Part shown: positions 11,189 through 39,855 of the stretch, one piece after another
Layout of the letters: the number at the start of each line of letters is the position of its first letter
Numbering within the stretch: the stretch's first letter is position 1
NCBI GenBank assembly: GCA_937139515.1
Contig: CAKZQI010000298.1
Location: 1-39,855 of the forward strand
From: an uncultured Armatimonadetes bacterium
Lineage (GTDB): Bacteria > Armatimonadota > Fimbriimonadia > Fimbriimonadales > GBS-DC
Direction of reading: 5' to 3'
Length of the DNA: 39,855 nt
Position numbers and translations under genes: made by a program
The notes under the pieces: model-generated
Database searches by the model: none
Told to the model about the DNA's origin: nothing
The model's input: only the letters and a program-made list of their open reading frames with translations

Positions 11189-11643
11189 GAAAACATTCGT
11201 TGAGTTCCAGTTTCCCGAACGCGTGCGAGGGTGTTTGAAAAATCGTGGCACGGGCATCCTGCCCGTGGAGCGAAGCACGCAAGCCATGAGGTAGGGTAGG
11301 ATGTGTCCGCTGGGAACGCATGCGTCTCGCCTGCACCACTGGTGAGAACATCTTGAGCAAGGATACCCAAGCCACGCAATGTAGCACGGGCATCCTGCCC
11401 GTGGAGAGTCTCTTGGGCAAGGATGCCCAAGCCACGAGCGGTGAGTTTCACCTCAACCCGAAAAGCCCACCCTATCACCCTGAGCGAAGCGAAGGGTCTG
11501 TGCTTGAGGTTGCATAGAGATTCTTCGCTTCGCTCAGAATGACAGAAGGGCATGTCAGAATGACAGTGGGGGACGAGGGACTGACGAAGGAGCGTCAGAG
11601 TAGGGGCGGATTGGTATGATATTGAACGCTGCGGTTGTACCCT
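11189..11643 (+). mobile_element. Family A MITE-like repeat, copy 1, interrupted by a family B element
   Basis: Colinear with the reverse complement of 19301-19661. Head ACATTCGTTGAGTTCC, core TCACCCTGAGCGAAGCGAAGGGTCT...GAGATTCTTCGCTTCGCTCAGAATGACA, tail TTGAAC...GTACCCT followed by TA. Confidence 0.7.
11227..11434 (+). repeat. Family B element (left TIR plus REP-like hairpins) nested in family A copy 1
   Basis: GAGGGTGTTTGAAAAATC at 11227-11244. GT(G/A)GCACGGGCATCCTGCCCGTG at 11245-11267 and 11381-11403. Matches 18929-19116, but no right TIR was found. Confidence 0.75.
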
Positions 11644-12741: not shown

Positions 12742-13248
12742 ATGCCAGAACCCCTGAGCCAGATTGACCGCGAGGCTTGGCGCTTCATCAACTCGGTCAG
12801 TGTGATTACGGTCGCCGTGGAAGGTGTTGCGAATGCGATGAGTGCCGAATGGTGTGCCCCCGTCTCGCTCAAGCCGCCTTTGATTGGGGTGTTTGTCGGT
12901 GAGGAGCGTTTCACGCGCCGACTGATTGAGCGTGCTGACACCTTCGGGGTCAGCCTTCTGGCGGAGGACCAGGCTTGGATTGCGCGTGCCTGTGGGCGCC
13001 ACTCTGGAAGCGAGGTCAACAAACTCGCCGAGTTCAACATTCCCACCGAGCCTGCGCTTTATATCCCCGCACCGTTGATTGCTGGCAGTTGTGCCCAGTT
13101 TGAATGCCGTGTGTTAGACCGACGGGTGTACGGGAGCCATATGCTGGTGGTGGGGGAACCCTTGCGCGCGGTGGGCTATCCTCAAAAGCGCACGATGGCG
13201 TACCACCGAGGGCACTACTACACGCTGGGCGAGGAGCGGACTCCGTAG
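12742..13248 (+). CDS. Flavin reductase-like (FMN-binding split barrel) protein
   Basis: V.VITV....ANAM...W..PVS..PPLI.V, CG..SG...NK, APLI......ECRV....GSH.LVVGE. Confidence 0.88.
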   Translation: MPEPLSQIDREAWRFINSVSVITVAVEGVANAMSAEWCAPVSLKPPLIGVFVGEERFTRRLIERADTFGVSLLAEDQAWIARACGRHSGSEVNKLAEFNIPTEPALYIPAPLIAGSCAQFECRVLDRRVYGSHMLVVGEPLRAVGYPQKRTMAYHRGHYYTLGEERTP

Positions 13249-13277
13249 GTCGCTTAGGTTGTTGGAAAGGTCAGTCC

Positions 13278-13622
13278 TTATCCGGGGGGCCAGCCCATCG
13301 TGCGCCCACCCAACAGGTGTAGGTGTAAGTGATAGACCGACTGCCCTGCGTTGGCGTTCGTGTTGGCGACCACACGGTAGCCCTCCGGCTCGATGCCTTC
13401 TCGGCGGGCGAGCTCGGCGCAGACCCAAAGCAAGTGTCCCATTAGCCCCTCGTGTTCGTGGGTCATCTCGGCAAGGTTGGCGACATGGGTTCGAGGTACG
13501 ACTAAGATGTGGATGGGCGCTTGGGGATTGATGTCGCGGAAAGCGAACGCCTGCTCATCTTCGTACACGATTTGGGTGGGGATTTCGTGGCGCACGAACT
13601 TGCAAAAGAGGCACTCACTCAT
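13278..13622 (-). CDS. hinT: Histidine triad (HIT) nucleotide-binding protein
   Basis: CLFCK, AFRDINPQAP.H.LVVP, GQSVYHLHLHLLGGR...WPPG. Its RBS GGAGG lies inside the upstream gene. Confidence 0.95.
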   Translation of the reverse strand: MSECLFCKFVRHEIPTQIVYEDEQAFAFRDINPQAPIHILVVPRTHVANLAEMTHEHEGLMGHLLWVCAELARREGIEPEGYRVVANTNANAGQSVYHLHLHLLGGRTMGWPPG

Positions 13623-14355
13623 GGCGTTTTCCTCCGGAACGATTTAGGTACTGCTCGCGTGTCATCGTACGCATCCGTTCTAAGGCGTCGCGCTCGAATT
13701 CGCGCACTTCATCGGGCTTCAACGAGAGTTGTTCGGCGACCTCTTCGTGGGTGTGCGCCTTTTCGCCTTCCAAGCCGTAGAGCAGGCACATCACCACGCG
13801 CTCGGCAGGGAGCAGATGCTCCACCAAGCGCTCCATCTGGCGGGGGCTGAAAGGTTCGTTCTGTCCGAACACAATCTGCACGACCGCCTGTTCCTCGCTC
13901 TTGTTGCGCGATTGCCAGATTTTCAGGAGGTTGAGAATCTGGTTGTGGCTGAGGGTCTCAGCGAAGTAGCCTTCCGCCCAGAAGTTGCGCCTGCCAATCC
14001 GTTGCTCCAGGTCGGAAATCGTTTCAAAGAGGCGGTGCGCAGTGCTCCGCTTGATATTACTCACTATGTCGGCAATCGCATCGGTGGGTTTGAAGCCTAT
14101 TACGAGATGAATCTGATTCGGCGTAAGACGATATGCAATCAATTCGTACTCGTAGGTCTTGCACACCTCGGGTAGATGGGCACTCAGGATCGGAACCGCT
14201 TCCGAGTCGATAAGTGGGCTGCGAGCGCGGGCGTAGAAGGCTATCAGCGCATAAAGCCGATAGGCACTAGCTCCCGTCGTTCGCAACTTCTCAAACGGAG
14301 AGCCTTGCCCCTTTCGGCTGGACTGCTTCGTCTCTTGGGAGGACTGCTTCGCCAT
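13615..14355 (-). CDS. Inactive IS200/IS605 TnpA-like (Y1 HUH) domain fused to a sigma70 region-4 domain (246 aa)
   Basis: aa ~30-148 follow TnpA (AYRLYALIAFYARARSPLI; NQIHLVIGFKPTDAIADIVSNIKRSTA; FWAEGYFAETL). aa ~172-230 follow sigma70 region 4 (LLPAERVVMCLLYGLEGEKAHTHEEVAEQLSLKPDEVREFERDALERMR). RBS GAGGG and extended -10 TGGTATACT lie upstream. Confidence 0.85.
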   Translation of the reverse strand: MAKQSSQETKQSSRKGQGSPFEKLRTTGASAYRLYALIAFYARARSPLIDSEAVPILSAHLPEVCKTYEYELIAYRLTPNQIHLVIGFKPTDAIADIVSNIKRSTAHRLFETISDLEQRIGRRNFWAEGYFAETLSHNQILNLLKIWQSRNKSEEQAVVQIVFGQNEPFSPRQMERLVEHLLPAERVVMCLLYGLEGEKAHTHEEVAEQLSLKPDEVREFERDALERMRTMTREQYLNRSGGKRHE

Positions 14356-14491
14356 CGTATCCCTCACACGCACTAGCCGTATAGTTAGAGTATACCACAA
14401 GTCGGCTCGGGGCAACACGCAAAAAGCCACTCCCTCGCTGTCTACGCGGTTCCGCTGCTTGAGGTATATTAGTCTTGAAAGGAACAACCCT

Positions 14492-15646
14492 ATGAGCCAG
14501 TTAGACTATTCAGTATCGGGGCGATTTCGGGCTGGACGACGGCGTGTGTCAGTACGACGGGCAAATGGTTCCACTTTCAACGCGCAACTCTACTACCCTG
14601 CGACCGCAACAGGCGAGAACACTCCCTACGATGGCAGTGAGGCGCCCTATCCTGCGATCAGCTTCGGGCACGGGTTCCTCCAGCCGCCCGAACGCTACCG
14701 CTCCACGCTGGAGCATCTCGCTACCTGGGGCTACTGGGTGATTGCCACCGAGTCGGGGCAAGAGCTGTTTCCCAACCACCAGCGCTACTCTGAAGACCTC
14801 CGAGACTGTCTGACCTATTTAGAACAGCAGAATGCCGAACCGACCTCCATCCTCTATCAGCAGGTGGCGACCGACCGCTTCGGCATTTCGGGGCACTCGA
14901 TGGGCGGAGGTGCCAGTGTGTTGGCGACCGCCAGCGACGCCCGTATCCGAGCGATTGCGACGCTCGCCGCTGCCGACACCAACCCGTCGGCAATCCAGCA
15001 ATCGCCGAACATCACCGTGCCTCACAGCCTGATTTCGGGCAGTGCCGACACAATTACCCCGCTCGCCAATCACGGGCAGCGGATGTACAACGCGGGCTTC
15101 GCTCCCAAACTGCTCCCCGTGATTCAGGGAGGGTGGCACTGTGGGTTCCAAGACAGTTCCATCATCGGGTGCGACAGCGGTCCGATGTCGCGTGCCACCC
15201 AGCTCCAAATCACGCGCCGATTGCTCACCGCCTTTTTTGAGCTTTATCTGCGAGGCGATTTGCGGGCATGGGACGATGTCTGGGGCGCTGGGGTGTTGGG
15301 CGACCCACGCATCGTGCTGTCGGCGGAGTCGGGCATTGCTGTGGAGCCTGACTTTCAGCGGCAAATAGCGTTCACACCGCGTATCCTGACTTATGGGCTT
15401 GCAATTGCCAACCTCAGCCGATACCCTCAGCGCTATCAAATCCTGATTGAGGGCAACCGCTGGCAGACCGAAGCCCTGCCGAACCCCACGCCTCAGGTGG
15501 CTCCGGGTGGGGTGGTGAAGGTGCAGGTGCGTGTGCGTGTACCCCGCGCGCGACCGGGGAGTAGCGACCTCGCTCAGGTCAGTGCGCTCTCCCTTCGAGA
15601 TGGGGGCACACGTGCGATTGCACGGATACAGACCGTCCTGCGCTGA
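14492..15646 (+). CDS. Alpha/beta hydrolase (chlorophyllase/cutinase-like) with a C-terminal Ig-like extension
   Basis: YPAISFGHGF, LATWGY, nucleophile elbow GHSMGGG, SGSADTITP (Asp), GGWHCGF (His), beta-rich C-terminus. Confidence 0.85.
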   Translation: MSQLDYSVSGRFRAGRRRVSVRRANGSTFNAQLYYPATATGENTPYDGSEAPYPAISFGHGFLQPPERYRSTLEHLATWGYWVIATESGQELFPNHQRYSEDLRDCLTYLEQQNAEPTSILYQQVATDRFGISGHSMGGGASVLATASDARIRAIATLAAADTNPSAIQQSPNITVPHSLISGSADTITPLANHGQRMYNAGFAPKLLPVIQGGWHCGFQDSSIIGCDSGPMSRATQLQITRRLLTAFFELYLRGDLRAWDDVWGAGVLGDPRIVLSAESGIAVEPDFQRQIAFTPRILTYGLAIANLSRYPQRYQILIEGNRWQTEALPNPTPQVAPGGVVKVQVRVRVPRARPGSSDLAQVSALSLRDGGTRAIARIQTVLR

Positions 15647-18289: not shown

Positions 18290-19261
18290 AATCGGCATCC
18301 ACGCGCCTTCCGAAACCCGTGATTGCGCTGGGCGGTGTGAGCCTGCTCAACGACACCAGTAGCGAGATGCTCTACCCCGTGCTACCGCTGTTCCTGCGTC
18401 AGTTGGGCGCACCTGCGAGCGCGATTGGGCTGATTGAGGGCGTTGCGGAGGCGGTAGCGAGCCTGCTCAAACTCTTCTCAGGTTGGCTGGCAGACCGCTT
18501 GGGGCGCCACCGTGAACTGGCGTTTTGGGGCTACGCCATCTCGGTTCTCACACGCCCCTTCTACGGATGGGCGACCACCCCGTTCTATGTGCTTGCCCTG
18601 CGCACGACCGACCGCTTCGGCAAAGGCATTCGGAGTGCCCCCCGCGACGCCCTCTTAGCCAGCGCTGAGAGCCGATGATACGGGGGCGTGCGTTCGGCTT
18701 CCACCGTGCGATGGACAACCTCGGCGCGATGCTCGGTCCGCTTTTGGCGACTTTGGTGCTGACGCTGGCTTCCAACGACTATCGCTGGGTGTTTTGGGTG
18801 TCGGCGGTTCCTGCACTGCTATCGCTGGCGGTTTTTCGGTGGGGGGTGCCCGCTGTGTCGTTGTCTACAGCTCAGCACGTCGGTCGTCATCCGCTATCGG
18901 GTGCGAGGGCGCTGATTCGGGGCAGGTTGAGGGTGTTCGAAAAATCGTAGCACGGGCATCCTGCCCGTGAAAAATCGGGTAGGTCGGGGCAGAATGGGTC
19001 CGCTGGGAGCGCAGGCGTCTCGCCTGCATTGTCGTTGAGAACCGCTTGGTGAGGGATGCCCATGCCATGCATGCGGGCGGGACGCCCACGATCCCAGTGA
19101 TTTTTCAAACACCCTCGGGCAGGTTCGGTTGGTTCTTGCTATGGGACACCTTCGGGATGGCATTAGCATTCAGTTGGAGCGCTGGGCTGAGCCTGCTGGC
19201 GTGTGTGGGGCTGATGAGGATTCATAACGAGGGATGGCGTTCCGCCTGTGTCCTTAGTTGA
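18286..19261 (+). pseudogene. MFS transporter pseudogene (frameshift, MITE insertion and internal deletion)
   Basis: N-half motifs VSLLND.SSEM.YP.LP, GWLADR.G, DRFGKGIR.APRDAL. An extra AG in GAGAG (18667-18671) shifts the frame before RGRAFGFHRAMD. Family B insertion at 18929-19116. Only the last helix (WDTFG..LAF) of the C-half remains. Confidence 0.85.
18929..19116 (+). mobile_element. Family B MITE (188 bp) with 18-bp TIRs and a 9-bp target-site duplication
   Basis: TIRs GAGGGTGTTCGAAAAATC / GATTTTTCAAACACCCTC (1 mismatch). Flanking direct repeat GGGCAGGTT at 18920-18928 and 19117-19125. Internal REP-like hairpins. Confidence 0.9.
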
Positions 19262-39475: not shown

Positions 39476-39855
39476 GCTGACAACTTTGTTAAGTTCAAGT
39501 TTCAGAAACACCTGCCTACTTTCAGAAGCACTGACCAGAGAGGTTCGGCTCAACGCCAAAACCCCATCCTGTCACCCTGAGCGTCAGCGAAGGGTCTCTG
39601 CTTTGGATGCCACAGAGATTCTTCGCTGCGCTCAGAATGACAGAAAGGGGGTGTCAGAATGACAGCCCCCACCCTGTCACCCTTAGCGTCGGTGAAGGGC
39701 CTGGGGTAATCCTTCAACCTCACCCCCCTGTGTCCCCCCTCTCCGCAAGCAGAGAGGGGGGAAGTACACTGCTACTAAGCCCCCTCTCCGTTTACGGAGA
39801 GGGGGTCGGGGGTGAGGTCAATCAGGTTGCACCGAGATTCTTCGCTGCGCTCAGA
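39476..39855 (+). repeat. Family A repeat, copy 3 (runs off the window), interrupted by a family C palindrome
   Basis: Head ACTTTGTTAAGTTCAAG after TA. Core TGTCACCCTGAGCGTCAGCGAAGGGTCT...GAGATTCTTCGCTGCGCTCAGAATGACA, which resumes at about 39834. Confidence 0.7.
39717..39818. repeat. Family C composite palindrome (ACCTCACCCC...CCCCTCTCC..GGAGAGGGG..GGGGTGAGGT)
   Basis: Outer inverted repeat ACCTCACCCC / GGGGTGAGGT enclosing two CCCCTCTC(C)/(G)GAGAGGGG hairpins. A split remnant lies at 19275-19300 and 19664-19687. Confidence 0.75.

Follow-up and report, generated by a model that had tools for sequence, protein, structure and literature searches.

The subject of this analysis is a single gene located at positions 13615–14355 (reverse strand) of contig CAKZQI010000298.1 from the assembly GCA_937139515.1, a stretch of 39,855 nucleotides (nt) hereafter referred to as the window, which comes from an uncultured bacterium of the phylum Armatimonadota (order Fimbriimonadales, family GBS-DC). 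Its product joins a Y1 (HUH-fold) transposase-like domain of the IS200/IS605 TnpA type to a domain corresponding to region 4 of sigma-70 factors (r4). The catalytic set of the Y1 domain has been lost in every member of the protein family, and the gene is present in a single copy, in one small family of hot-spring bacteria, under purifying selection acting on both halves. That it is a domesticated host gene rather than a mobile element is well supported. We tentatively propose that it may encode a transposase-derived regulator of transcription, in which a Y1 module that binds nucleic acids without cleaving them is coupled to a protein-docking module made from sigma region 4.

Domain architecture of the fusion protein

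An initial inspection of the window, made from the letters and the open reading frames (the original prediction), had described the product as a Y1 TnpA fused to sigma70 region 4, and both halves of this architecture were identified by profile searches. The single open reading frame runs from ATG to TGA, encodes 246 amino acids (aa) and is intact; an alternative longer frame starts with TTG and would encode 290 aa, and the starts of the homologs coincide with the ATG. Pfam assigned residues 31–141 to Y1_Tnp (PF01797; E-value 2.6e-18, 66.7 bits against a cut-off of 23) and residues 179–229 to Sigma70_r4 (PF04545; E-value 5.3e-6, 26.3 bits against a cut-off of 24.1), and the two domains were matched in 26/26 aligned members of the family. 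Among the NCBIfam models, transpos_IS200 (NF033573) scored 67.1 bits (cut-off 55), while REP_Tyr_transpos reached 35.3 bits and stayed under its cut-off of 80. The profile of 26 relatives compared with the PDB retrieved ISDra2-type TnpA (E-value ~2e-13) and region 4 of SigA/RpoD (E-value 3e-10). No match to Sigma70_r2 was found in the protein, and models of sigma factors aligned only within residues 153–239 (the last 60–90 aa), with scores far under their cut-offs. Matches in the ESM Atlas were confined to the protein's own cluster and to IS200-type folds, in PADLOC region 4 gave a weak match to MzaA (15.3 bits) and nothing else, and no RNA family was found with Rfam at E-values up to 1 in positions 12800–14800. 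The fusion of a Y1 domain with sigma region 4 is therefore present as predicted. The features of the locus are as follows (all on the reverse strand; the kind of evidence is given in parentheses):

13615–14355: the complete Y1–sigma4 fusion gene, 246 aa and the stop codon (open reading frame, Pfam, NCBIfam)
14275–14355: residues 1–27, the basic N-terminal tail, which ends in the conserved S-P-F-E-K-L-R-T-T-G (charge, alignment)
13906–14274: residues 28–150, the catalytically dead Y1 (HUH-fold) transposase-derived domain (profiles, alignment, tree)
14107–14118: residues 80–83, N-Q-I-H, the remnant of the HUH motif (alignment)
13906–13935: residues 141–150, the remnant of the catalytic helix (alignment)
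13840–13905: residues 151–172, the interdomain linker (alignment)
13657–13839: residues 173–233, sigma-70 region 4 (4.1 and 4.2) of the primary-sigma type, net charge -5 (profiles, charge)
13615–13656: residues 234–246 and the stop codon, containing the ribosome-binding site of hinT, GGAGG (13631–13635), and overlapping the hinT start by 8 nt (sequence)
13278–13622: hinT, HIT domain (100.6 bits), located downstream and translationally coupled (domain match, comparison of loci)
14389–14399: TGTGG-TATACT, an extended -10-like promoter element (sequence, orthologous loci)
14360–14365: GAGGGA, the ribosome-binding site, 4 nt 5' of the ATG (sequence)

Loss of the catalytic site

The fate of the active site was analyzed in an alignment of 57 family proteins (P0001–P0055, P0057 and P0059, without the fragments P0056 and P0058) and, for comparison, 10 canonical Y1 transposases retrieved by the same search. 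The canonical TnpA proteins carry the H-u-H motif in 10/10 cases, while the window protein exhibits N80-Q81-I82-H83, and the first His of the motif is replaced by Gln in all 57 relatives. The position of the second His is less uniform, with His in 44 sequences, Asn in 9, Tyr in 2 and Gln and Thr in one each. The helix that follows FWAEGYFAETL, which in 9/10 canonical enzymes exhibits Y-xxx-Q, reads LNLLKIWQSR in the window protein; a Tyr occupies the nucleophile position in 0/57 relatives against 9/10 canonical sequences, the Gln position is taken by Arg in 54/57 (R150 in the window protein), and the lost Tyr is followed by Trp in 55/57 (W147). In the first strand (Y-H-l-V-W) the window protein has Leu in place of His, and several Tyr residues elsewhere in the Y1 domain are invariant. 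Hence the motifs read in the original prediction (N-Q-I-H for HUH, L-N-L-L-K-I-W-Q for the Tyr helix, no first-strand His) were correct, and the claimed catalytic loss extends to the whole set and is consistent across the 57 relatives. When 28 Y1 domains of the family were placed in a quick tree together with 9 canonical sequences as an outgroup, whose branches are long, they grouped as one clade (SH-aLRT 97), and therefore the inactivation and the fusion occurred once.

Origin and surface of the sigma region 4 half

The r4 domain aligns without gaps to region 4 of Thermotoga RpoD over 67 residues, including a part of the C-terminal tail of primary sigma factors, and is 35% identical to region 4 of a sigma factor from the same genome; therefore it originates from a primary-type sigma factor and not from a helix-turn-helix (HTH) domain of the LuxR or transposase type. 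Its recognition helix has, however, been rebuilt: R-E-R-x-R of the sigma factors is replaced across the family by P-D/E-E-x-x, as seen in the comparison of RpoD (T-R-E-R-I-R-Q-I-E-V-K-A-L-R-K-L-R) with the fusion protein (K-P-D-E-V-R-E-F-E-R-D-A-L-E-R-M-R). Residues 176–233 also match residues 546–603 of E. coli sigma-70 without gaps, with Pro in place of R584 and, in place of R586, a Glu (E216) that hardly varies in the family; sigma factors have Arg at this position. We take R584 and R586 to be the residues that contact the -35 element. The net charge of the recognition helix is about 0, compared with +5 in the genome's two sigma factors, and that of the whole r4 domain averages -2.5, compared with +4 and +5 in region 4 of those two factors. 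The former DNA-facing side is thus conserved but acidic, which argues against binding to an operator or a -35 element and for a contact with a protein or within the molecule. Consequently, it is unlikely that the sigma-4 half reads -35 DNA, and this property, which the original prediction had listed as known for sigma region 4, should not be assumed for a domain that is acidic and has lost the recognition Arg residues. The other end of the protein shows the opposite tendency: the mean net charge is +4.4 for the N-terminal tail (25 orthologs) and +1.4 for the Y1 core, and in the clade with a neutral tail the Y1 core carries +5 to +6. The tail and the Y1 domain together remain net positive, as a conserved nucleic-acid-binding role would predict.

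Distribution, inheritance and selection

A word-indexed search identified 56 proteins including the query, all of which, except for one fragment of 171 aa, cover 86–100% of the query at 44–86% identity, and which originate, where the source names the organism, from metagenome-assembled genomes of Armatimonadota or Fimbriimonadales. Among 1.84 billion cluster representatives searched exhaustively with HMMER, only 5 had E-values up to 1e-30, including two more distant fusions (268 and 233 aa, 38–39% identity) in which both domains are present. About 50 positions are invariant, although the sequences are down to 44% identical. Among the GTDB species genomes of the window's family, 27/29 contain one match each (19/19 of those of high quality), with an intact frame in all 27 genomes, which span six genera; one of the two remaining genomes has a contig that ends inside the gene. 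The fusion was found in 0/122 genomes from the four sister families of the order (f47 0/3, f2 0/98, f48 0/1, f3 0/20) and in 0/300 genomes sampled across the phylum, where only partial matches to the Y1 or to the sigma half occurred (best E-value 2e-15). Nearly all of these genomes are metagenome bins and the absences hold for the genomes searched; the f3 tallies, and most probably also the sister-family and repeat-core counts, include one genome flagged as unpublished (G341).

The window's own genome, which is 97% complete, contains one copy of the fusion and no second match to Y1_Tnp. There is no TnpB domain anywhere in the assembly and the gene lacks flanking inverted repeats, in agreement with the original prediction. 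Full-length relatives were absent from plasmids (0/69 matching records), phages (0/5) and IMG/VR contigs. The GC content at third codon positions is 0.69, similar to that of the neighboring genes. The median pairwise dN/dS (NG86) is 0.12 for the whole gene, 0.11 for the Y1 domain, 0.10 for r4 and 0.17 for the tails and the linker, compared with 0.07 for hinT; these values come from 153/300 pairs with dS of 0.05–1.5, many of them near saturation. Protein distances of the fusion correlate with those of HinT (Mantel r 0.88, with 0/2000 permutations as high). Several of the checks suggested together with the original prediction came out in its favor: the fusion extends beyond this assembly to 27 genomes, it is a single-copy gene, its inheritance within the one family is vertical and its dN/dS is well below 1.

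Linkage to hinT and the promoter

In 23/24 related loci from the species-genome collection (five further loci, which contain ordinary Y1 genes of other phyla, were left out) the fusion gene is followed by hinT on the same strand, and the 24th locus is cut by the end of the contig. The stop of the fusion overlaps the start of hinT in 23/23 complete loci, by 4 nt in 17, by 8 nt in 5 and by 17 nt in one (automatic start call), and translational coupling to hinT is found in most genera; the conserved C-terminal Gly-Gly-Lys/Arg codons coincide with the GGAGG of hinT. The 8-nt overlap in the window and the TGTGG-TATACT and GAGGGA elements upstream of the gene had been described accurately in the original prediction. 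The expected synteny with hinT holds for these related loci but not for the whole family: in the two deepest genera the fusion is located away from hinT, which is on another contig. According to gene names read from translations, in one of these genera the fusion lies between a glycoside-hydrolase-like gene and nrdR, and in the other between pyrB and a VKOR/DsbA-like gene and hisS. Therefore the fusion is older than its linkage to hinT and has been maintained in its absence. The upstream gene varies among the related loci, and no other conserved neighbor was seen.

The sequence GGTATACT upstream of the gene is conserved in 23/25 loci and is enriched genome-wide (171 found against ~51 expected), as is GGTATAAT (227 against 36 expected); it represents an ordinary strong promoter rather than a special site. 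A strict -35/-10 scan revealed no full promoter upstream of the gene, which fits a promoter relying on the extended -10 element alone. A hairpin in the 5' leader overlaps the ribosome-binding site in one genus and, by eye, is not conserved across the family.

An origin of the fusion by insertion between mtaB and hinT was considered and rejected: mtaB lies on another contig in the window's genome and is present in none of the related loci. The idea concerned the sister-family genome G337 (L047, 1498–3189), where an mtaB/miaB-like methylthiotransferase gene is located directly 5' of hinT with a gap of 15 nt, so that the upstream partner of hinT differs from that in the window's family. The divergent neighbor of the fusion gene in the window (14459–15646, forward strand) encodes an alpha/beta hydrolase similar to PETase and dienelactone hydrolases with a C-terminal Ig-like domain, and is not conserved beside the fusion in other genomes. 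In G324 (L048, 7473–11438) a ribonucleotide reductase gene of 1321 codons adjoins nrdR and contains, by eye, an apparent intein-like insertion.

Relationship to known systems

Few domesticated prokaryotic transposases are known; the RAYTs are derived from Y1 TnpA, and the TldR and Cas9/Cas12 lineages from TnpB or IscB. With the TnpA of IS200/IS605 elements (ISDra2, 2xm3; 2fyx) the fusion protein shares the sequence family and, by profile match, the fold over residues 31–147, including the structural motifs K-R-x-T-A-H-R-L-F and F-W-A-E-G-Y. Unlike these enzymes, it lacks the first His of HUH, the catalytic Tyr and the metal-binding Gln, and has gained a basic N-terminal tail and ~95 C-terminal residues with sigma region 4; its gene is single-copy, devoid of element ends and of tnpB, and found at a fixed site by hinT in 23/24 loci. 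Compared with primary (group 1) sigma factors, it shares regions 4.1–4.2 without gaps, lacks regions 1–3, and has the -35 Arg residues replaced and a net negative charge.

The RAYT (TnpA-REP) proteins resemble the fusion in being Y1 proteins retained as single-copy chromosomal host genes; they are described as domesticated single-copy Y1 transposases associated with REP elements (PMC8266576), and they keep HuH/Y and are flanked by REPs (PMC6006769). The fusion differs in its dead site, in a REP_Tyr_transpos score under the cut-off, in having no bordering REPs, and in a REP abundance that is not tied to the gene. The second group with a similar layout, a Y1 core followed by a C-terminal HTH with no REPs nearby, is TnpAY1 subclass 2.1 (TIRYT), which according to Quentin et al. 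2018 (PMC6006769) combines an intact HuH/Y core with a C-terminal domain of the Bac_DnaA_C, HTH_23 or HTH_28 type and with terminal inverted repeats; according to the same authors, all TnpAY1 members share the HuH/Y core. In the fusion, by contrast, the only HTH is Sigma70_r4, the core is dead, there are no inverted repeats, and the best NCBIfam match is to the IS200 and not to the REP type. TldR proteins, described as nuclease-dead TnpB-derived transcription factors of IS200/IS605 origin (PMC10705468), offer a parallel of another kind: an IS200/IS605 protein that became catalytically inactive and was taken over by the host to regulate genes, a role that in the case of the fusion is a prediction. 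TldR differs in being derived from TnpB, in being RNA-guided and in having a known mode of action.

In the literature searched, no published description of a Y1_Tnp/PF01797 and Sigma70_r4/PF04545 combination was found (the main text of PMC6006769 contains neither "sigma" nor "inactive"), and no publication was found that combines HUH, IS200, "sigma factor" and "region 4". The literature found on domesticated or inactive TnpA comprises RAYT and TldR and nothing like the fusion. The statement of the original prediction that no family with this architecture has been described thus stands for the combination itself, while Y1 proteins with a C-terminal HTH are already known, with HuH/Y and other HTH types (PMC6006769). 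What has not been described is the combination of a dead site, a sigma-derived region 4 devoid of its DNA-reading residues, vertical inheritance throughout a family and coupling to hinT. Such a protein would be a clear case of Y1 TnpA itself losing catalysis, being retained by its host for no less time than a bacterial family has existed and becoming joined to a piece of the transcription machinery. It also offers a natural experiment, with an HUH fold deprived of its chemistry and a sigma region 4 that lacks both the remainder of the sigma factor and the residues that read DNA. The public names "IS200/IS605 family transposase" and "RayT" mislead counts of mobile elements. The importance of the family is limited by its narrow range (~30 species, mostly known from metagenomes) and by a function that is predicted from sequence.

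A different rearrangement of the Y1 fold was observed in seven tandem proteins of ~280 aa with two Y1_Tnp domains (P0060, P0066, P0071, P0072, P0075, P0077 and P0095). Their first domain has no HUH and keeps the Y-xxx-Q helix, and the second has D-H-V-H-L-L and no Tyr helix, so that they resemble single-chain pseudo-dimers which rebuild one "trans" active site.

Possible function and alternative explanations

The explanation that we favor, with due caution, is that an IS200-type Y1 domain lost all its chemistry, was joined to region 4 of a primary-type sigma factor, and was passed down vertically in one family of Armatimonadota as a regulator of transcription. The basic tail and the Y1 core would bind nucleic acids without cutting them, most likely single-stranded DNA or RNA, or hairpins, as Y1 transposases do, with the Y1 halves probably acting as a dimer. 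Arg150, at the site of the old metal-binding Gln, and Trp147, beside the lost Tyr, might together hold the substrate by a phosphate and a base, with no cleavage following. The acidic sigma-4 half would dock on a protein, and the most likely candidate is the ancestral target of region 4, the beta-flap tip of RNA polymerase. The fusion protein could then bring the bound nucleic-acid structure to the polymerase or occupy the docking site of sigma. The coupling to RNA polymerase is an inference from the ancestry of the domain. Thus, of the host-recruited regulator proposed in the original prediction, the architecture, the dead site, the single copy, the vertical inheritance and the low dN/dS have stood, and the DNA-reading sigma-4 and the universal linkage to hinT have not. 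Several points weigh against the explanation as a whole. The hydrophobic positions kept in r4 may reflect the fold alone and hence do not demonstrate binding to the flap; competition with the housekeeping sigma, which might be harmful, would be expected of a flap binder expressed at a high level; the REP-like hairpins of the genome do not track the gene and thus provide no conserved hairpin ligand; and the length of the linker varies in deep branches (it is longer in the deep-branching relative P0057), which disfavors a rigid sigma-like geometry.

A more specific form of this idea can be envisaged. The beta-flap tip is bound by sigma at initiation and lies free beside the RNA exit channel during elongation. 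The fusion protein might be an accessory factor of RNA polymerase, with the sigma-4 half on the flap tip and the dead Y1 domain reading nascent RNA hairpins or displaced single-stranded DNA, and thereby modulate pausing, termination or promoter escape. In this detailed form the proposal is rather improbable; if true, it would define a new class of polymerase-bound structure reader made from a transposase.

With respect to the polymerase itself, the flap-tip helix of the beta subunit in the window's genome (G000) reads E-Q-K-L-V-R-I-I-F-G-G-K-A, and the rpoB frame (contig C265, 107–4177) contains, soon after this helix, at residues ~960–990, a zinc-ribbon-like insertion with four Cys residues (C-x-x-C ... 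C-x-x-C).

Or perhaps the fusion is an ordinary dimeric DNA-binding transcription factor, whose sigma-4 HTH binds a double-stranded operator, possibly in its own promoter, and whose dead Y1 domain serves for dimerization or sensing? Region 4 is after all an HTH domain, Y1 TnpA proteins are dimeric (PMC3597680), Y1 proteins with a C-terminal HTH thought to bind DNA have been described (PMC6006769), and short inverted repeats can be seen by eye over the -10 region in several orthologous promoters. However, these repeats vary in sequence and position among clades, the Arg residues of the recognition helix are lost (P-D/E-E-V-x against R-E-R-I-R of Thermotoga RpoD), and the charge of the helix (~0 against +5), the average of -2.5 for r4 and E216 in place of the sigma Arg also speak against it. 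We therefore regard this alternative as unlikely.

On its former DNA-facing side the sigma-4 half has a conserved acidic surface, which speaks against an operator and would suit a basic partner. This half could accordingly act as an adaptor or decoy that binds not the polymerase but another partner, on which the function would then depend, be it an anti-sigma-like regulator, HinT or, in a form of autoinhibition, the basic N-terminal half of the same protein. The overlap of 4–8 nt with hinT in the 23/23 complete loci and in the window suggests matched production of the two proteins, but two deep genera keep the fusion without an adjoining hinT, and no other conserved neighbor was seen. To this possibility, too, we assign a low probability.

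It is highly improbable that the gene is a functionless, decaying relic of IS200 or a frame open by chance or by annotation, as the loss of the catalytic residues and the public labels "IS200/IS605 family transposase" or "RayT" might imply, since an intact frame with dN/dS of ~0.1 on both domains is found in 27 genomes from six genera, ~50 positions are invariant at 44% identity, and the promoter, the ribosome-binding site and the coupling to hinT are conserved. An unusual transposase that still works with other catalytic residues, for which the second His kept in 44/57 sequences and the invariant Tyr residues elsewhere in the domain could be invoked, can be practically dismissed, given that each genome has a single copy, located at a conserved site in the chromosome and without element ends, that the gene is absent from the plasmid, phage and viral contigs searched, and that the nucleophile position is never Tyr. 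The remaining probability belongs to functions that we have not thought of.

REP-like repeats in the genome

REP-like hairpin repeats, which belong to at least four families, occur by the hundreds and in clusters in the window's genome, where no intact Y1/RAYT transposase is present. The presence of many such hairpins in a genome without an active Y1 protein suggested them as a possible ligand of the fusion. The commonest core, CTGAGC-N3-4-GCGAAG, is present in 588 copies in the window's genome (G000), and in the other genomes of the family in 0–6 copies in 16/19, with 143 copies in G301 and 43 in G324 (G328 was not searched). As a general ligand the REP-like hairpins were thus rejected, the commonest core being at background in most of the genomes that carry the gene. 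In the search of 61 genomes of the order, in which G301 represents a congener, the core was also abundant in one sister-family genome (52 copies). Within the window, REP-like repeats are located at 11227–11540, 18952–19117 and 39577–39800, the first of these being the nearest to the fusion gene, at a distance of ~2 kb.

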